Below, piece by piece: positions 1 to 7,822 of a stretch of DNA of 26,780 nt (its first letter is position 1; every line of letters starts with the position of its first letter). The stretch is from the IMG/VR virus record IMGVR_UViG_2713897161_000007. The stretch is one strand, 5' to 3'. Below the pieces are notes generated by a model. That model did not search any database. It was not told where the DNA came from and saw nothing but the letters and a program-made list of their open reading frames with translations. Source of the DNA: a virus. Taxonomy: Duplodnaviria > Heunggongvirae > Uroviricota > Caudoviricetes. A program made the translations under genes and the position numbers.

Positions 1-1002
1 TTACCCTCTATTGTCAAAAGGGTTCAATTCAACAGCAGCCTCTAAATGACCTGGAGCAAAATGCGCATAACGCATAGTCATTTTTATATCGCTATGCCCC
101 AGTATTTTTTGCAACACAAGAATATTTCCGCCCCGCATCATAAAATGACTGGCAAACGTGTGACGTAGCACATGAGTTAATTGCCCATCAGGAAGCTCGA
201 TCTTCGCTCTCTTAATTGCAGCGTCAAAAGCCTCATAACATGGTGAAAATAGCGCTCCTCGTTTTTGAGGAAGCATAGCCTGCAATTGAGGTGAAATCGG
301 TACAGTGCGGTTCTTCTTTCCTTTAGTTTTAACAAATGTGATTCGACCGGGCAGTACTTGAGATTGCTTTAATCCTTCAGCTTCACTCCACCGAGCACCA
401 GTCGCAAGCCCAATACGGACAACAACCCCCAAATCTTTATTCCGTGACTCATCACACGCAATCAGAAGGCGTTCAATCTCATCTACATACAGAAACGCCA
501 GTTCCTTTTCTTCCTCACGAAACTTGCGAATACCAGTCAGGGGGTTTTCACCAGACCACTCCCCAAGGCGCTTCAGTTCGGCAAAAACAGCATGTAGATA
601 TGACTGCTCGCGATTAACGGTTGCTTCACTAAGTTTTTTCTTCCCCTTGGGATTCCATTCTCCTGATAGCCTTCTTTCCCGATAAGTAGCAAACATATTT
701 TTGTCAAACTGAGAAGCAAATGGATCCCCCAGCCTGGAACAAATCGCCTCAAGTTTGACTTTGCGCTCTGCACCAGAGGACAAGGTTTTACCGTACATCT
801 CAAACCAACGAGCAATCAACTCAGAAAGACGAGGACCAGAACCATCTTGAAACTCGTCTCCAACTCTACTATTCATTAAACGGCGCTCATAAGAGAGCGC
901 CTCACTTTTTGTCGCAAACTGTTTACGAATGCGTTTTCCCGATGCCCCGTAGGGATAACATTCGCAAAGCCATTTACCTGATGGAATCTTACGAACCGAC
1001 AT
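1..1002 (-). CDS. int: Tyrosine recombinase / phage integrase, P2-186 family
   Basis: 333-aa ORF. C-terminal catalytic signature (TGARWSEA, RITFVKTKGKKNRTVPIS, HVLRHTFASHFMMRGG, GHSDIKMTMRYAHF) typical of P2-type integrases. Confidence 0.9.
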   Translation of the reverse strand: MSVRKIPSGKWLCECYPYGASGKRIRKQFATKSEALSYERRLMNSRVGDEFQDGSGPRLSELIARWFEMYGKTLSSGAERKVKLEAICSRLGDPFASQFDKNMFATYRERRLSGEWNPKGKKKLSEATVNREQSYLHAVFAELKRLGEWSGENPLTGIRKFREEEKELAFLYVDEIERLLIACDESRNKDLGVVVRIGLATGARWSEAEGLKQSQVLPGRITFVKTKGKKNRTVPISPQLQAMLPQKRGALFSPCYEAFDAAIKRAKIELPDGQLTHVLRHTFASHFMMRGGNILVLQKILGHSDIKMTMRYAHFAPGHLEAAVELNPFDNRG

Positions 1003-1007
1003 TTTAG

Positions 1008-1355
1008 TTACTTATCACATAAATCAAATGCAGCCTTAGTGACATCCCCCAGACTCTTTTTTAACCCTGGGGCGGCATCATTATCTAGCCAAAATGGATT
1101 ATTGTTATCTAACGGTAACGCACCAAATGTTTTACCTTTTATTCGAGCTAAACCTGTAAGCGCATATAACTTATTATCGTCAAAATTCATCACATAAGGA
1201 TTACCATCAAGACACTGTAATTGAACCTCATCAGTATTAAATGGCCATACCCCATTGAAACTCTCACGTTCAATAGTTTTAAAAGGCATTGCGACGGCGG
1301 AAAAAGAAAACATAGATAAAAAAGTAACTAATAGTTGAACCTTTTTTACTTTCAT
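1008..1355 (-). CDS. Secreted protein of unknown function (N-terminal signal peptide, two Cys); cargo in lysogenic operon
   Basis: 115-aa ORF with hydrophobic N-terminus (MKVKKVQLLVTFLSMFSFSAVA). Packed 5 nt upstream of int on the same strand. AT-rich relative to phage core. Confidence 0.55.
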   Translation of the reverse strand: MKVKKVQLLVTFLSMFSFSAVAMPFKTIERESFNGVWPFNTDEVQLQCLDGNPYVMNFDDNKLYALTGLARIKGKTFGALPLDNNNPFWLDNDAAPGLKKSLGDVTKAAFDLCDK

Positions 1356-1384
1356 ATCATTACCTCAATTTAGCTCAAGTAAGA

Positions 1385-2035
1385 TTACAAATTAAAAAAC
1401 ACCCTAGAAATGGCACCGCCTACCAAAACCCCTACGCAGATAAAGAATATTATTTCTTTTGGATAAAGTCGGATTAATTCTGAAGCACGAAGTCGAACTT
1501 CTGGTAAGGCCGAACTCTCTGTGTGACTTGATGCCGATTGTTGCTCTAACCACGACAATGCAGACTGTAACTGAGAACGAGTAAGATCGTTTAAACGTCC
1601 TGTACCGAAATTGATATGGCAATACCGCAGAAGTTTTTGTCGAAGTCCACAGTCTTCACTGTTACGTAGTAATAAACTTACAAGAGTCTTACAGGCATCA
1701 TGATCTTTACATCGCTCAAGCATTGCATGCAGAAAACTCTCCGCTGTTTTATATTGATTTACTGTCATATCATCAATACCAGCTACACCAATCTCCGCAT
1801 GTACTTTTTGCCAAATAATAAACGCTTCAGTATTGCTAGCTTCTGCAATAGCAGCAACCAAGCTATTTAGCTCCTTACGCTGAGCCTTAAGCAAAGGGCG
1901 ATCGTCATCATCATTATTCGAAGGGATTGCGATATTGACGGTATGAGAACCATCATATCGCTCTATCTGAATATTCTTTTCGTGAAAATCACGCCCAGCA
2001 ACGCGATTGTTTGAACCGTTTGAGTTGACGGCCAT
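1385..2035 (-). CDS. Tail-anchored membrane protein of unknown function (single C-terminal TM); cargo in lysogenic operon
   Basis: 216-aa ORF. C-terminal hydrophobic stretch IIFFICVGVLVGGAISRVFF. N-terminus carries NNRVAGRDF, echoing the repressor C-terminus. Confidence 0.55.
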   Translation of the reverse strand: MAVNSNGSNNRVAGRDFHEKNIQIERYDGSHTVNIAIPSNNDDDDRPLLKAQRKELNSLVAAIAEASNTEAFIIWQKVHAEIGVAGIDDMTVNQYKTAESFLHAMLERCKDHDACKTLVSLLLRNSEDCGLRQKLLRYCHINFGTGRLNDLTRSQLQSALSWLEQQSASSHTESSALPEVRLRASELIRLYPKEIIFFICVGVLVGGAISRVFFNL

Positions 2036-2050
2036 GTCACCTCCCTACTA

Positions 2051-2455
2051 TCACCTACCCTTAGTTTCGTTATAGTCACGACCAGCGATACGGTTATTAC
2101 CACCAGAAATATTTAACTCACGTCCTGATGGCTGAGTTTCCTTTTCACTGATCGCACCTTTTAAAGCCCCGATCACCGCGTTTTTCACATCTAACGAAGC
2201 TGCTCGAAAGCGAGTAATCAACTCCTGCTCATCATCGTTATAAGTTTCAGGTGAGTGAATTCCCAACACAACATACTGAACATCAAGGCCAAAACGAGAC
2301 AGCGCTGCCAAATACGCAGCATCAGGAAAGCTATCTCCTTTCTCATATCTAAGCTGAGTTAGCTTTTTGACTCCACCAATGTCGCTCATGGCAACTTGAC
2401 TAAGTCCCAATCTTTCCCTTTCCTCACGCAACCGCTGACCAATATCATTTTTCAT
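2051..2455 (-). CDS. HTH (XRE/Cro-CI type) transcriptional repressor, probable prophage immunity repressor (P2 C analogue)
   Basis: 134-aa ORF with N-terminal HTH (QRLREERERLGLSQVAMSDIGGVKKLTQLRYEKG). First gene of the leftward operon ending in int. No LexA-like peptidase domain. Confidence 0.7.
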   Translation of the reverse strand: MKNDIGQRLREERERLGLSQVAMSDIGGVKKLTQLRYEKGDSFPDAAYLAALSRFGLDVQYVVLGIHSPETYNDDEQELITRFRAASLDVKNAVIGALKGAISEKETQPSGRELNISGGNNRIAGRDYNETKGR

Positions 2456-2464
2456 ACAAAAACC

Positions 2465-2493
2465 TTGACAGGTATCTTTTTTGATACCAAAAT
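2465..2493 (+). promoter_or_regulatory. Divergent switch region: TTGACA -35-like hexamer followed by palindrome GGTATC-N6-GATACC (candidate operator)
   Basis: TTGACA at 2465-2470; perfect inverted repeat GGTATCttttttGATACC at 2471-2488 in the 75-bp gap between divergent repressor and early operon. Confidence 0.4.
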
Positions 2494-2530
2494 GATTTCA
2501 CGAGCTATTAGATGATCACAATATACCACT

Positions 2531-2737
2531 ATGAAACAAGTTCTTCACGATACCAGATCACGCATTCCGCGTAACACCGCCACAGGTCCAAGACTGGCAC
2601 TTCGGCTGTCCCTCGAGGAGCGAGCCGTCATTGATGAAATGGCAGCTAAAGAACAACGCTCATCCTCTAACATGGCGCGCATGATCTTCCTTCGCGGCCT
2701 AGAGCTAACCCAGAAAGAACAAAACAAATCTTCCTGA
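2531..2737 (+). CDS. Small ribbon-helix-helix-like regulator (first early gene; Cox/Apl/Cro position)
   Basis: 68-aa ORF; RLSLEERAVIDEMAAKEQRSSSNMARMIFLRGLE resembles CopG/MobC-type RHH proteins. No clear SD, so start uncertain. Confidence 0.45.
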   Translation: MKQVLHDTRSRIPRNTATGPRLALRLSLEERAVIDEMAAKEQRSSSNMARMIFLRGLELTQKEQNKSS

Positions 2738-2753
2738 TCAGGAGGCTAGTGGG

Positions 2754-2957
2754 ATGTCAGGTATAACCATCAATATCAATGTGAATGCCCCCTATGTATC
2801 CCTGCAGAAATATGCAGAGATAACAGGTATCCCTCTTAATACATGCAAAAAGATGTTGGCTGACGGTCGAATTATTATCCGCCCCAAACGCGCCAAAATG
2901 GAAAAGCCTGAAGTAAACCTTGTGGCGATGTTAAAAGACGCTTTGGCTAACAGCTAA
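2754..2957 (+). CDS. Small HTH DNA-binding protein (excisionase/regulator-like)
   Basis: 67-aa ORF with AGGAGG 8 nt upstream of the ATG. HTH-like segment VSLQKYAEITGIPLNTCKKMLADGRI. Confidence 0.55.
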   Translation: MSGITININVNAPYVSLQKYAEITGIPLNTCKKMLADGRIIIRPKRAKMEKPEVNLVAMLKDALANS

Positions 2958-4595: not shown

Positions 4596-4985
4596 ATGAT
4601 TGACGCTCATGACTTCACAAGATGGGTGCGCACACAGGACACCCGTCTGGCTCCCGTTCTTCAGGGATTATTTGATCTCTACATCCGTGGTCGTGACAAC
4701 AGAGCACGCACCACAAAACCGGAGAATGCAGACACCCTTTATTTCACAGTAGACGACTGCTACCGCGTGGACTTCACACCACACGGGCTGGCGTTGCACT
4801 GCCTGACACCACACGGCGAATCACTGCTGGCGTATTACGACTCCCCGGCCTCCATATTTGCGGCAATGCTGGCGCATCGCACTGCTGGCGGGTGTGCCTC
4901 GCTGAGTGAATACTCCGCTGAATTTAACCGCCTTTCCGCCCTCTTCTCACAGGAGTGGCAGCGCGTGACGGGATACCAGCCATGA
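4596..4985 (+). CDS. Hypothetical protein immediately upstream of replication gene A
   Basis: 129-aa ORF; its stop overlaps the A start (ATGA at 4982-4985). Confidence 0.5.
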   Translation: MIDAHDFTRWVRTQDTRLAPVLQGLFDLYIRGRDNRARTTKPENADTLYFTVDDCYRVDFTPHGLALHCLTPHGESLLAYYDSPASIFAAMLAHRTAGGCASLSEYSAEFNRLSALFSQEWQRVTGYQP

Positions 4986-7822
4986 GTGCGTTTGCATGGA
5001 GCTGGAATGAACCACGGCCAGCCATTGATCCGGCCAGATTTACGGAGCGCAGGCAGGAAACTGAAACCGACCTGCAACGCGCCATCCGTTACTACCTTGA
5101 GGCAAACAAAAGGGCACAGGAAGAACAGGAAGCGAAGGAAGAAGCCTTTTTCGCACAATCCACCGTGGGTAAAAAACTCATGGCATCCCTTGAGGAAGCC
5201 GGACAGCGTGAAAAGCTGGCACAAAGCATCATCAGCAAGCGTCAGGCAACAGAACAAGACCCGGTGGCCCGTGCTTTTGCCACACTGAAGGTGCTTCCCG
5301 TTTATCTGCGTGAACCTCTGAGCCGCCACCTCTCTTTTCTGCGCAAGAAGCAGGAAGCCGATCGTCAGAAAGGCAAAAAGAGCTGGCAGGCTGAACGCTA
5401 CGCGCGCGGAACCCTGCGCAAAATATTCGAACGTCTGGACCGCACCGACAGCCGCTGGCTGACACCGGGCTATCGCTCCCTTGCCGGACGCGAACGCCTG
5501 GACGATTTGCTTTACCTGCCGCAGCTCAACAAACACCAGATACAGACGCTGGCCACCATGACGGCGGCGATGTTCAGTGGCACTTTTGAAAAACTCTGCG
5601 ATGGCTTTGGCGCGACCGATGGCGAGCTGACCATGGATGTAACGCTGAAGGCGTATCAGATGCTGGCCCGCATGGCGTTACACCTGCACGCTATGCCTCC
5701 ACATTATGACGCTCTGACAACAGACAAAGACCGGAGGAATGAACCGGACACGGAGCTGCTGCCGGGCGCAATCCTTCGCCTGACCTGTGCGGAATGGTGG
5801 AAACGCAAACTGTGGCTGTTACGTTGCGAGTGGAGAGAAGAACAACTCCGCGCCGCCTGTCTGGTTTCCAGAAAAACATCACCCTATCTGAGCCAGGACG
5901 CGTTAAGCGAGTTTCGCGCACAGCGCGAGAAAACACGCGATTTCCTGAAAAGTTTCATGCTGGAAAACGAAGACGGGTTCACGATTGATCTCGAGACAGT
6001 GTATTACGCGGGAGTAAGTAACCCGATTCACCGTAAGGCAGAAATGATGGCCACCATGAAGGGGCTGGAACTTCTGGCCGAAGCCCGTGGCGACAGAGCG
6101 GTGTTTCTGACTGTCACCTGCCCGTCAAAATACCACGCCACAACAGAGAACGGTCATCCGAATCCCAAATGGAACGGGGCCACCATGCGCGACTCCAGCG
6201 ATTACCTGGTTAACACGTTTTTTGCGGCGGTCCGCAAGAAACTGAACCGCGACGGCCTGCGCTGGTATGGCATCCGCACGGTGGAGCCTCACCATGACGG
6301 CACCGTGCACTGGCATATGATGGTCTTTGCTCATCCGGAAGAAATCGACACCATTGTGTCCCACACCCGCGATATTGCCATTCAGGAAGACCGCCACGAG
6401 CTGGGCAATGATATTACTCCGCGCTTTAAGGTGGAGTATGTCGACGGCTCAAAAGGCACGCCAACCAGCTACATCGCCACCTACATCGGAAAGAACCTGG
6501 ACAGCCGCGCCGTGGATGGCATCGACCCGAAAACGGGCAAGCCACGCGTTGACCACGAAACCGGAAAATCAATGGCCGAGAGCGTGGAACGCGCCATCGG
6601 CTGGGCACGCCTTCACCGGGTCCGCCAGTTCCAGTTCTTTGGCATCCCCTCCCGTCAGGTATGGCGTGAACTCCGCCGCCTTGCCAGCCAGATGGCACGC
6701 AACCCGGAAGGCCCACAACGGCTGAAGGATGATGCAATGGATGCGGTACTCGCTGCCGCTGATGCCGGATGTTTTGCCACCTACATTGAAAAACAGGGTG
6801 GCGTACTTGTTCCGCGCAAGGACTACCTGATTCGCACAGCCTACGACCTCGCAGATGAGCTGAACGATTACGGCGAACAGAGTGTACAGATTTACGGGAT
6901 CTGGTCGCCATTCATCGGGGAATCCTCCCGTGTGTGCACGCATCCGGATAACTGGAAGCTGGTAAGACGTAAACCGGAAGCGGAAGACAGCGCCCGCGAA
7001 AATGGTTTTGACCTTCAGGGCGGCCCTGCCGCCCCTTGGACTCGTGGCAATAACTGTCCCCGTGTACAGGAAACAGGCAACAACGGGACAGAACAGCCGG
7101 AAGAACGGCCAGCACCGTGGCCGCAGCTTCCTGACGGCGTTGAAGTAAATGAATGGATGCGCTCACTGAAACGGCACGAACGCCGGGCGCTGATGCGTTC
7201 GCTTCGTGACAAACAGGCAAAAAACAGCAGCGATGAAATGCAGAACTGGACACAGAGCCGCAAACAGCAGCGGCCTTTGCCTGATAACCACGAGTTACTC
7301 GCTAAAGAATGGCGGGAGTCTGCTGAATCTCTCGGCCTGCATATCGGTGAACAACAGATGCAGCACCTGTTACGGGGCGGCAGTCTGTACGTTGACGGCA
7401 GCATCATTGCACCGCAGGGATTTGAAATTGTACGCAAACCGGATACCCGCCCGGACAGCCGAATCACGCAGCTCTGGCAGCGTCTGAGCCGTAATCATGG
7501 CGTAAGCAGCACGGAGATCCGCCATAACCCGGTCGCCAGCTATCTGGCACAGCTGGGGGCATCAGACCCTGAAGCCGCCGCACGCCTGGCATCCACACTT
7601 CAGCAGGACCAGAACACCATGAAAACACCCGTTACCGTGCTTTCTGACATGCTGCGCGCCATCCGCGACGCAGAGCACGCACAGAGAATCAGTGAAACCA
7701 CTGAACGCGCCAGCCGCAAAGCAGACCTGCTGCGGGGTGGCCTGACCAGTGGAAACAAAAAACAGACAGAAACGGGACTCACGAATCCCGTAAATGAGCA
7801 AAAAACGCGCAGCGATATATGA
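4982..7822 (+). CDS. A: Rolling-circle replication initiator (HUH endonuclease), P2 gene A homologue
   Basis: HUH motif in TVHWHMMVF and paired catalytic tyrosines in YIATYIGK. Position matches P2 A. Start at 4982 or 4955. Confidence 0.85.
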   Translation: MSAFAWSWNEPRPAIDPARFTERRQETETDLQRAIRYYLEANKRAQEEQEAKEEAFFAQSTVGKKLMASLEEAGQREKLAQSIISKRQATEQDPVARAFATLKVLPVYLREPLSRHLSFLRKKQEADRQKGKKSWQAERYARGTLRKIFERLDRTDSRWLTPGYRSLAGRERLDDLLYLPQLNKHQIQTLATMTAAMFSGTFEKLCDGFGATDGELTMDVTLKAYQMLARMALHLHAMPPHYDALTTDKDRRNEPDTELLPGAILRLTCAEWWKRKLWLLRCEWREEQLRAACLVSRKTSPYLSQDALSEFRAQREKTRDFLKSFMLENEDGFTIDLETVYYAGVSNPIHRKAEMMATMKGLELLAEARGDRAVFLTVTCPSKYHATTENGHPNPKWNGATMRDSSDYLVNTFFAAVRKKLNRDGLRWYGIRTVEPHHDGTVHWHMMVFAHPEEIDTIVSHTRDIAIQEDRHELGNDITPRFKVEYVDGSKGTPTSYIATYIGKNLDSRAVDGIDPKTGKPRVDHETGKSMAESVERAIGWARLHRVRQFQFFGIPSRQVWRELRRLASQMARNPEGPQRLKDDAMDAVLAAADAGCFATYIEKQGGVLVPRKDYLIRTAYDLADELNDYGEQSVQIYGIWSPFIGESSRVCTHPDNWKLVRRKPEAEDSARENGFDLQGGPAAPWTRGNNCPRVQETGNNGTEQPEERPAPWPQLPDGVEVNEWMRSLKRHERRALMRSLRDKQAKNSSDEMQNWTQSRKQQRPLPDNHELLAKEWRESAESLGLHIGEQQMQHLLRGGSLYVDGSIIAPQGFEIVRKPDTRPDSRITQLWQRLSRNHGVSSTEIRHNPVASYLAQLGASDPEAAARLASTLQQDQNTMKTPVTVLSDMLRAIRDAEHAQRISETTERASRKADLLRGGLTSGNKKQTETGLTNPVNEQKTRSDI

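Follow-up and report, generated by a model that had tools for sequence, protein, structure and literature searches.

Why should the last residues of a prophage repressor resemble the first residues of the protein encoded next to it? The question is raised by a P2-like prophage represented by a 26,780-nucleotide stretch of DNA (IMG/VR record IMGVR_UViG_2713897161_000007, the whole of which we refer to as the window), in which the initial annotation had pointed to a shared NNR[IV]AGRD[YF] peptide at the C-terminus of a helix-turn-helix (HTH) repressor and the N-terminus of the downstream 216-residue protein. That observation is confirmed by our analysis. The repressor gene (2051..2455, minus strand) ends with LNISGGNNRIAGRDYNE (residues 114-130; 2066..2116, minus strand), followed by the basic end TKGR and the stop, and the next open reading frame (1385..2035, minus strand) begins with MA followed by VNSNGSNNRVAGRDFHE (residues 3-19; 1979..2029, minus strand). 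The match is longer than first described, with 17 aligned residues of which 10 are identical, and its local BLOSUM62 score is 62 against 20.7 +/- 4.1 for shuffled tails, a value reached by 0 of 20,000 shuffles. The window contains no third copy.

The genes that carry the two peptides lie in the lysogeny operon. The upstream gene encodes a predicted immunity repressor of 134 residues, for which Pfam returned only weak HTH_31, HTH_19 and HTH_3 hits, all below the cut-offs, and which matches PHROG transcriptional regulator and repressor families. In the AlphaFold2 (AF2) model an HTH (residues 1-65) and two helices (74-104) are confident, whereas the flexible tail (105-134) has a pLDDT below 50 and is not docked. 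The protein lacks the C-terminal S24 peptidase domain of the LexA and lambda CI-type SOS-cleavable repressors. It resembles the P2 C and 186 CI functional class in its context, as the gene order is int, DUF2511, partner and repressor, followed by the divergent early genes and gpA, although repression itself is inferred. A promoter-like site for the divergent early operon lies at 2465..2493 on the plus strand (TTGACA, 17 nt, CAAAAT; 10 of 12 consensus matches), and its spacer holds the perfect palindrome GGTATC-TTTTTT-GATACC (2471..2488), a candidate operator by position only. In the Mu-like loci the repressor gene is divergent from the ner-like, rve transposase and AAA_22 genes. The junction between the two motif-bearing genes (2036..2053, minus strand) reads TGA TAG TAG GGAGGTGAC, with three in-frame stops and a Shine-Dalgarno-like GGAGG 7 nt before the ATG of the partner, and the two reading frames are in the same frame. 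There is no room for a terminator here, and no terminator-like site was found anywhere in 900..2800, including between the repressor gene and int. The third gene of the same transcription unit (1008..1355, minus strand) encodes a DUF2511 protein (2.3e-06) with a signal-peptide-like N-terminus and is context only, not part of the motif pair.

The downstream partner is a Flk_N-domain protein with a predicted C-terminal membrane anchor. Its homologues carry a precomputed PF27202 (Flk_N) hit, the NCBIfam Flk model (NF007987) matches residues 37-166 at E 8.9e-16, and phrog_5825 matches at 3.7e-102. The helical Flk_N core spans residues 46-172 (1520..1900, minus strand), and the transmembrane anchor spans residues 184-215 (1391..1486, minus strand), where AF2 places helices at 184-190 and 192-215 and a hydropathy scan finds a transmembrane-like segment at 187-205. 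By the strict criterion 48 of 59 partners have such a segment; of those without one, the partners at two loci (L002 and L106) end in a shorter hydrophobic stretch and that at a third (L012) is truncated. The N-terminal motif lies in a low-confidence terminus (AF2 pLDDT about 45) and, by inference from the topology of Flk, on the cytoplasmic side. Flk (RflH, 'Fluke'), the flagella biosynthesis regulator of Salmonella and E. coli, is likewise a tail-anchored protein with its bulk in the cytoplasm, where it acts as a membrane-tethered latch on the fT3SS export gate (PMC13344023). The phage proteins are nevertheless distinct from chromosomal Flk: the window protein scores 58 bits against the equivalog cut-off of 353 (a model of about 333 residues with two domain copies) and has a single copy in 216 residues. 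Chromosomal Flk, typically about 330-350 residues (representatives 327-416), carries two matched stretches, starts MQPLSGPG... and has no repressor-matching N-terminal motif, whereas the phage proteins are about 190-216 residues and always follow a repressor gene. A PADLOC search gave no defence-system hit for the partner.

Is the pairing peculiar to this prophage? In 108 related loci from P2-like and Mu-like prophages of Enterobacterales, Orbaceae and Pseudomonas, which yielded 59 unique pairs, all 59 have the repressor gene followed, at -4..+35 nt on the same strand (most often 9 nt, and 15 nt in the window), by a protein whose N-terminus matches the tail; the partner is usually a Flk_N-domain, tail-anchored protein. 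As a blind control we examined 58 metagenomic repressor homologues, among which the 22 tails that are G/N/Q-rich with a basic end had a mean cognate score of 48 (13 ranking their cognate first and 19 ranking it sixth or better), while the 36 other tails, mostly from chromosomal HTH genes next to a response regulator, averaged 18.8, which is background. For 19 of the 22 motif-type tails the repressor gene is followed within -4..+35 nt by a membrane protein whose N-terminus matches that repressor's own tail. Four metagenomic repressors (L192, L194, L203 and L243) carry a motif-type tail but have no matching partner nearby. A chance resemblance of two low-complexity termini, which the richness of these segments in G, N and S might suggest, is refuted by the shuffles, by the recurrence of the pairing in related loci and in several distinct variants, and by the background scores. 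A lack of conservation in homologues, or a motif that is a common low-complexity pattern in unrelated proteins, had been named beforehand as conditions that would overturn the observation; the motif is conserved in homologues of both proteins, and a strict DNA pattern for the class-1 motif occurs in only 71 stretches of 2.9 million viral contigs, nearly all of which are the same tail and N-terminus pair. In 44 class-1 repressors R122, R126, D127 and E130 are invariant and G118, A124 and G125 are at least 90% conserved, and in 28 homologues of the partner S5, G7, N10, R11, D16 and E19 are invariant and G14 and R15 are at least 90% conserved. The module is present in about 10% of complete E. coli genomes (521 of 5,426), including O157:H7 genomes at 99.2% identity, and in many other Gammaproteobacteria.

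Does selection act on the protein or is the similarity inherited at the level of DNA? The initial annotation had argued from differing codons that the conservation is at protein level and not a recent DNA duplication, and this is correct. In the window pair the copies share 59% nucleotide identity and only 4 of 10 identical residues use the same codon; across pairs nucleotide identity is 60%, and over 605 identical positions the same-codon rate is 0.46 against 0.41 expected from codon usage. Gene conversion as the cause of the match is rejected on this evidence. A functionless evolutionary relic, in which an ancestral membrane-anchored HTH protein split into two genes or the junction was duplicated, also appears very unlikely. 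It draws some support from the shared reading frame in the window and in most class-1 loci, and from one PHROG profile (phrog_17822, 267 positions) that matches the repressor at profile positions 5-103 and a Flk_N partner at 132-204, with room for one motif copy between them. However, no natural HTH-Flk_N fusion appeared among the 89 representative clusters of the partner family or in a search of 5.8 billion proteins with a profile built from synthetic fusions; of the candidate proteins, P0179 is a tandem HTH protein and P0335 and P0336 are over-called starts. In addition, other classes use other frames or overlap by 4 nt, both copies are invariant at key positions across genera while synonymous sites are randomized, and the motif is attached to unrelated partner proteins. 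The suggestion in the initial annotation of a relic of domain shuffling is thus not supported, as no fused protein was found and both copies are under long-term purifying selection.

The tails and N-termini vary together between classes. At least five mutually distinct variants (NRxAGRD; NT..QIAG..IY; Q.I.G.N.G.VV.A; AK...G.VG..V.A..G.T; and the FHG.VGQ supergroup) each score best with their own partner, with cognate scores averaging 56.2 against 20.4 +/- 5.5 between classes, and 5 of 9 class representatives rank their cognate first. This co-variation is only between classes: within class 1 the variable positions (Y/F after RD, and the residue between NR and AG) do not co-vary, and within the FHG.VGQ supergroup non-cognate partners can score as high as cognates. 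The motif is also portable. The same motif supergroup heads unrelated membrane proteins, namely a two-TM 152-residue protein at locus L001, a coiled-coil plus TM 255-residue protein at L110 and a 186-residue protein at L108, and different HTH domains carry the same helix-plus-tail module at L081, L005, L021 and L023. This favors motif-to-motif pairing over docking on the core of either protein. Single host genera hold different variants, as in Pectobacterium (proteins P0159 and P0174 against P0170), Dickeya (protein P0142 against locus L023) and Gilliamella (L001 against L003), which argues against a shared host receptor.

This last observation bears on the possibility that both termini are recognized by a common third factor, such as a host protease or adaptor (ClpXP, Lon, FtsH), a chaperone or another phage protein, and that the motif is a shared degron or docking tag. 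The initial annotation had proposed a degradation motif, the repressor tails end in a basic cluster (2.4 K/R on average in the last six residues), and C-terminal tails control ClpXP degradation of Mu repressor and MuA. We consider this reading unlikely, as a conserved host receptor would not drive different variants, each matched to its own partner, within single genera; the basic end is not part of the shared segment, since the partner copy is N-terminal and continues differently; and the motif has no third copy in the window and appears in viral contigs nearly always as the pair. The comparison with Mu is further limited in that, although a flexible C-terminal tail governs inactivation of this transposable-phage repressor and the tails here also end in a basic cluster, Mu Rep is not an XRE-type HTH protein and no matching peptide on a neighboring gene product is known for it. 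A second alternative, also unlikely, is mimicry or competition, in which the repressor tail would normally dock in trans on another subunit, for example to build the dimers or higher oligomers needed for cooperative operator binding, and the N-terminus of the partner would occupy the same site and so cap or titrate the repressor, the two peptides never binding each other but resembling each other because they share one receptor on the repressor. This equally explains the matched variants and the portability on the partner side, and the conserved helical region next to the tail could be the receptor. However, the tail is not docked on the repressor body in the AF2 monomer model, and because different HTH domains carry the same tail, any receptor would have to lie in the short helical region.

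The interpretation in the initial annotation is therefore supported only in part: an interaction motif coupling the two proteins is the reading best supported by the between-class co-variation, a host-recognized degradation motif fits poorly, and the 216-residue protein is not variable cargo but a constant companion of this repressor type. We favor, with moderate confidence, the view that the two peptides are a cognate pair of interaction modules, each a short (about 12-29 residues), flexible segment rich in Gly, Asn/Gln and Val/Ile, that would bind each other by strand-to-strand (homotypic beta) pairing and so physically couple the repressor to the inner membrane. The likeliest consequence would be control of how much active repressor is available, through regulated sequestration or inactivation at the membrane, which would give these repressors a route to derepression in the absence of a peptidase domain. 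What our analysis establishes is the match, its conservation, its between-class co-variation, its portability between different partner proteins, its placement in flexible termini, and the operon and membrane context, whereas the binding itself, its beta or amyloid nature (including fibril formation and templating) and the direction of any effect on lysogeny are inferred. AF2 predicts no beta structure for either terminus in the models of the single proteins, and as the two proteins are made from one operon at a near-fixed ratio, constitutive binding would have to be reconciled with the need for free repressor on DNA.

The layout resembles that of amyloid-signaling motif gene pairs, which include bacterial BASS1-10 (Bell-domain protein plus NLR), BASS11 in E. 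coli Bab/Agp, and fungal HET-S/NWD2 (10.1101/2020.01.06.895854 section 7; PMC8086366; 10.1101/2024.11.07.622273). In those systems, as here, adjacent collinear genes with tiny or overlapping spacing carry a motif of about 20 residues, rich in G, N/Q, V/I and A/S and poor in Pro, at the C-terminus of the first product and the N-terminus of the second, several non-homologous motif families exist that are each matched within their pair, the motif is portable between domains, and one member of the pair is membrane-directed. The matched segments here are 9-29 residues, typically 12-29 (median about 18), with G 15%, N+Q 21%, VILFY 26% and P 1%, and lie outside the globular domains, so that templated cross-beta assembly is a plausible form of the pairing, although the class-1 motif is unusually charged (R, R, D, E) for an amyloid core. 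The domains are entirely different: the C-terminal motif is on a DNA-binding, XRE-type HTH prophage repressor and not on a Bell/HeLo pore-forming effector, the N-terminal motif is on a constitutively membrane-anchored Flk-like protein and not on an NLR-like (NACHT or NB-ARC) or TPR sensor, and the context is the lysogeny operon of P2-like and Mu-like phages and not a defense island. Literature searches on Flk with prophage repressors, amyloid signaling with HTH proteins and prophages, tail-anchored prophage proteins, and antirepressors with membrane proteins found no prior description of this arrangement.

Repressors of P2-like phages and of many Mu-like phages have no self-cleaving peptidase domain, and how such prophages sense when to leave the host is largely unknown. 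The O157 P2-like prophage Sp13, for example, is mitomycin-inducible although its repressor lacks a peptidase motif, by a mechanism described as unexplained (PMC2669165). A conserved, co-varying peptide link between the repressor and a membrane-anchored protein from the same operon gives this question a concrete, testable handle. Phage antirepressors that bind or aggregate a peptidase-less repressor offer a functional parallel, in that a small phage-encoded protein controls the repressor through direct contact, as P4 epsilon does with P2 C (PMC2669165). Further examples are 186 Tum and VP882 Qtip, the latter of which sequesters cI into foci. These antirepressors are, however, soluble and expressed only on a signal from separate promoters, and none is known to share a peptide with its target or to be a membrane protein co-transcribed with the repressor. 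A more speculative possibility, which we regard as unlikely though not excluded, is that the lysis-lysogeny switch is controlled by prion-like templating, whereby the Flk-like protein would act as a membrane sensor (of envelope damage, an incoming phage, or a secretion or division cue) and on activation its clustered N-terminal motifs would nucleate a cross-beta fold that recruits and converts the repressor tail, pulling the repressor off its operator into a membrane-bound assembly and inducing the prophage. This would extend amyloid signaling from cell-death effectors to a transcription factor, and would also explain SOS-independent, or peptidase-independent, induction of P2-like and Mu-like prophages such as Sp13. 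If the pairing proves to be amyloid-like it would be the first case of such signaling acting on a transcription factor rather than a pore-forming effector, and the naturally orthogonal variants could also serve as small, portable protein-protein coupling tags.

Two further observations concern the partner and its relatives. We considered whether the N-terminus of the partner contains a HET-s-like internal repeat (unit 1 NRVAGRDF..., unit 2 ...FDGRHTINIAIP), but the resemblance is not significant, with a score of 15 against 14.3 +/- 3.4 and 2006 of 5000 shuffles at least as high. Finally, the 'Flk' gene of phage record NC_049343 is the host flk gene, which lies next to fabB and was caught inside the boundaries of the record.

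The window is a P2-like prophage, in which the minus strand carries, from the left end, a tyrosine integrase (1..1002), a DUF2511 secreted-type protein (1008..1355), a 216-aa ORF (1385..2035) and a 134-aa HTH protein (2051..2455). The early genes and a Phage_GPA replication protein (4955..7822) run on the plus strand; the latter is 955 aa long, but its Phage_GPA domain covers only residues 194-518, leaving a C-terminal region of about 430 aa without a family assignment. The 1.5-kb segment holding the two genes of interest is found at 95% identity or more in 506 of the 5,426 complete E. coli genomes, with some match in 521 genomes, including many O157:H7 strains at 99.2%, and it also occurs in Escherichia phage 520873. 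A strong, near-consensus promoter-like site (TTGACA, 17 nt, CAAAAT) faces the early operon at 2465..2493, and its spacer is filled by the perfect palindrome GGTATC-TTTTTT-GATACC (2471..2488), a likely operator for the HTH protein as inferred from position, which fits the HTH protein being the immunity repressor. No terminator-like site was found between the repressor gene and int, and only 15 nt, including a GGAGG, separate the stop codon of the repressor from the next ATG, thus the repressor and the 216-aa protein are almost certainly made from one transcript.

The repressor ends ...LNISGGNNRIAGRDYNE-TKGR and the next protein begins MA-VNSNGSNNRVAGRDFHE..., a match of 17 residues with 10 identities, which confirms the peptide sharing reported in the initial annotation. 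This alignment scores 62 against 20.7 ± 4.1 for shuffled tails, and 0 of 20,000 shuffles reach the observed value. The nucleotide identity of the two copies is 59%, only 4 of the 10 identical residues share a codon, and the window holds no third copy. The two ORFs are in the same frame on the minus strand, separated by three consecutive in-frame stops (TGA TAG TAG) and three sense codons (2036..2053). Most loci of class 1, the NRxAGRD class to which this pair belongs, also have an in-frame gap (9, 15 or 18 nt), though other classes use other frames or a 4-nt overlap.

Of the 120 listed homologues of the 216-aa protein, from Escherichia, Klebsiella, Enterobacter, Serratia, Erwinia, Citrobacter, Raoultella and others, 119 begin M.VNS.G..NR.[AS]GRD[FY].E or a close variant, and the remaining one, P0254, differs by one residue (AERD). 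Most repressor homologues from these genera, and from Yersinia, Salmonella, Dickeya, Pectobacterium and Hafnia, end [IV]N[VI][ST]G...NR[IV]AGRD[YF][NH]E.KK, and in family alignments the shared core residues are invariant or nearly so on both sides. Homologues therefore do conserve the motif, which the initial annotation had set as a test of its own proposal. Just after the shared motif, at 1919..1972 (partner residues 22-39), the partner has a second strongly conserved segment, IQI..[FY]DG.HT[IV]NIAIP, in which I24, D28, G29, T32, N34 and P38 are invariant; this segment has no counterpart in the repressor and is not a significant repeat of the first. In the endosymbiont Candidatus Symbiopectobacterium endolongispinus (locus L012, about 2400..2670) both sides look degraded together, as the repressor tail reads ..NRVAGNNFHENKK (RD changed to NN), and the partner reads ..NRVAVRDF.. 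and is truncated to 55 aa, which may represent coupled decay of the pair.

The decisive result comes from more distant repressor homologues, which carry different tails, and in every case we examined the gene immediately downstream starts with the same variant. In Brenneria, Pectobacterium and Dickeya the repressor tail QVFHGDINGQFAGNKIVN is followed by the N-terminus QEFNGTAQGQFSSRDIIN; in Gilliamella locus L003, NNTIRGEGQIAGGNIY by QDNTAEQIAGRDIY; in Orbaceae locus L021, QIIHGNNHGLVVDA by QHICGDNLGNVVNA; and in Pseudomonas locus L104, QQFNGPVGTVTSGDVVN by QQFHDRVHQVAAGDIKN. Likewise, QTFHGSVGQSVAGSITN is followed by QDFHGEVGQAAGGDINN in locus L106, VFHGDVGQVVNAD by KFDGPVGQAIQAD in locus L108, and KFVVHGDVGQNVDASQGGT by KVSIDGSVGAAVNAETGAT in locus L110. 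These loci are Mu-like prophages, in which the repressor is divergent from ner-like, rve-transposase and AAA_22 genes. Over 59 unique pairs the cognate score averages 56.2, against 20.4 ± 5.5 between classes, and five of nine class representatives rank their own partner first, where chance predicts about one. The FHG.VGQ-type tails form one related supergroup whose members cross-score, while the other classes are mutually distinct; within a class, however, the signal is conservation rather than co-variation.

As a blind control, the locus search was re-seeded with divergent repressors in metagenomes, and the last 35 residues of each homologue and the first 35 of the next same-strand ORF were taken mechanically. 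Of 58 unique cases, 22 have a G/N/Q-rich tail with a basic end, and their cognate scores average 48, with thirteen ranking first and 19 ranking sixth or better (the lower ranks reflect near-duplicates in the sample). Several new variants appear among these metagenomic loci (L196, L197, L198, L201, L202, L211, L218 and L226). The other 36, mostly chromosomal HTH genes upstream of a response regulator, have no such tail and average 18.8, which is background, although one of them (L193, score 61) is a genuine class-1 pair that our composition filter missed. Four repressors with a motif-type tail (L192, L194, L203 and L243) have no matching partner downstream within the DNA examined, and for L192, L194 and L203 a scan of every ORF in that DNA also found none, the next gene in L203 encoding a lipoprotein instead; the rule is thus strong but not absolute. 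A strict degenerate DNA pattern for NRxAGRD[YF][NH]E occurs in only 71 stretches of 2.9 million viral contigs, of which forty-seven hold both copies 78-108 nt apart. Of the 24 single matches, 21 have a slightly divergent second copy in the expected place, and the other three are L142, an apparent chance hit in an 86-codon frame, L145, where the match sits at the locus edge, and L161, where no upstream tail was picked up. The motif is therefore not a common pattern of unrelated proteins. Chance resemblance of the two termini is excluded.

Across all pairs the two copies are 60% identical in nucleotides, and identical residues use the same codon in 277 of 605 cases (0.46), against 0.41 expected from the codon usage of these genes. 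Gene conversion or recent duplication is excluded, and the match is maintained by selection on the peptides. This long-term purifying selection contradicts the alternative that the shared peptide is a functionless relic of gene fission, as do the portability of the motif and the absence of natural fusions from our searches. The one hint in favor of such an origin is a single 267-position PHROG family, phrog_17822, that matches the repressor (profile positions 5-103) and a Flk_N partner (profile positions 132-204), as if a fused HTH-motif-Flk_N protein existed, though no such protein was found in any search.

The repressor has an XRE-type HTH (residues 1-65), for which the Pfam hits are below the gathering thresholds, and it matches PHROG repressor and regulator families. 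Two helices follow (74-104, including the conserved DEQELL..FR.APLAVKAAALAALTAG), then a Ser/Ala-rich linker and the tail; in the AF2 model residues 105-134 have pLDDT 37-49 and do not dock on the body. There is no peptidase domain, and the protein belongs functionally with the peptidase-less repressors of P2-type and Mu-type phages. Homologues of the partner carry Pfam PF27202 (Flk_N), and the NCBIfam Flk model matches residues 37-166 at E 8.9e-16, but far below the equivalog cut-off. AF2 predicts a low-confidence N-terminus (1-45, pLDDT about 45), a confident helical core (46-172) and a C-terminal transmembrane helix (184-215). Chromosomal Flk proteins (about 330-350 aa, starting MQPLSGPG...) lack the motif. 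The partner is a relative of Flk but not an Flk orthologue. Fold searches of the core gave only weak helical-bundle similarities. The second-best viral hit of the partner model against BFVD, which is not significant (E 0.013, TM about 0.3) and is a lead only, is a protein annotated as containing an ORF6C domain, a domain of phage antirepressor-type proteins. By a strict hydropathy criterion 48 of 59 partners have a TM-like segment, and of those without one, L002 and L106 end in a shorter hydrophobic stretch and L012 is truncated.

The same motif supergroup heads unrelated membrane proteins, namely a 152-aa protein with two TM segments in locus L001, a 255-aa coiled-coil plus TM protein in L110, and a 186-aa protein in L108. 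On the repressor side, the genes upstream of the Flk_N match at about 2501 in loci L081, L005, L021 and L023 encode an HTH domain clearly different from that in the window, joined to the same C-terminal helix (..FR.APLA.KAAALAALTAG) and tail, thus the DNA-binding (immunity-specificity) part and the tail module assort independently. A peptide that stays matched while the bodies on both sides are exchanged is most simply explained by the two peptides recognizing each other. Mimicry, in which the N-terminus of the partner competes with the tail for a site on the repressor, explains the same data, however, and is hard to separate from direct recognition by sequence analysis alone. Different variants, each with its own partner, also coexist within single host genera (Pectobacterium, Dickeya and Gilliamella), which argues against a common host receptor such as a protease; a shared third-party receptor or degron is further disfavored because the basic C-terminal end lies outside the shared segment. 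The interpretation in the initial annotation is therefore partly supported, as an interaction motif coupling the two proteins is the favored reading, while its alternatives of a degradation motif or an evolutionary relic are not.

What our computational analysis establishes is a conserved pair of terminal peptides that co-varies between classes, is portable, is flexible, and joins a cytoplasmic repressor to a membrane-anchored protein made from the same operon. That the peptides bind each other, probably as paired beta strands, and that this controls the pool of active repressor at the membrane, is inferred from these observations. We consider it likely that the peptides are a functional coupling module and about as likely as not that they bind each other directly, though an amyloid-like pairing is doubtful on present evidence and antirepression as the direction of the effect is only tentatively proposed; the functional outcome may be sequestration, stabilization, tethering or triggering of the membrane protein. 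The layout, spacing, length and composition (G 15%, N+Q 21%, VILFY 26%, P 1%) are those reported for amyloid-signaling motif pairs (10.1101/2020.01.06.895854; PMC8086366), and an E. coli prophage-borne example, Bab/Agp, has been shown experimentally to signal by amyloid templating (10.1101/2024.11.07.622273). By position, the repressor with its C-terminal motif corresponds to the "effector" and the membrane protein with its N-terminal motif to the "sensor", which suggests a model in which an event at the membrane would trigger capture of the repressor and so derepression. The pair fails the domain criteria of that family, however, since there is no Bell/HeLo effector and no NLR or TPR sensor, and as any amyloid behavior remains hypothetical we do not assign it as a member. 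Paired terminal signaling motifs are already known, but we found no description of this pairing in the searchable literature, and what is new here is their occurrence on a prophage immunity repressor and a membrane anchor. Sp13, the P2-like prophage of O157 Sakai, is induced by mitomycin C although its repressor lacks a peptidase motif, by a mechanism described as unelucidated (PMC2669165), and O157:H7 genomes carry the present module, though we acknowledge that this is context only and not evidence that the module is responsible. The gene after the partner often encodes a lipoprotein or secreted protein, as with DUF2511 in the window (1008..1355) and the genes at 5039..5989 in L002, 2917..3321 in L106 and 4999..5373 in L003. 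The L002 and L106 products look homologous to each other (shared ..DDP....LPAIR...PGLDKYS..F), and these genes could be lysogenic-conversion or exclusion genes of the same operon.
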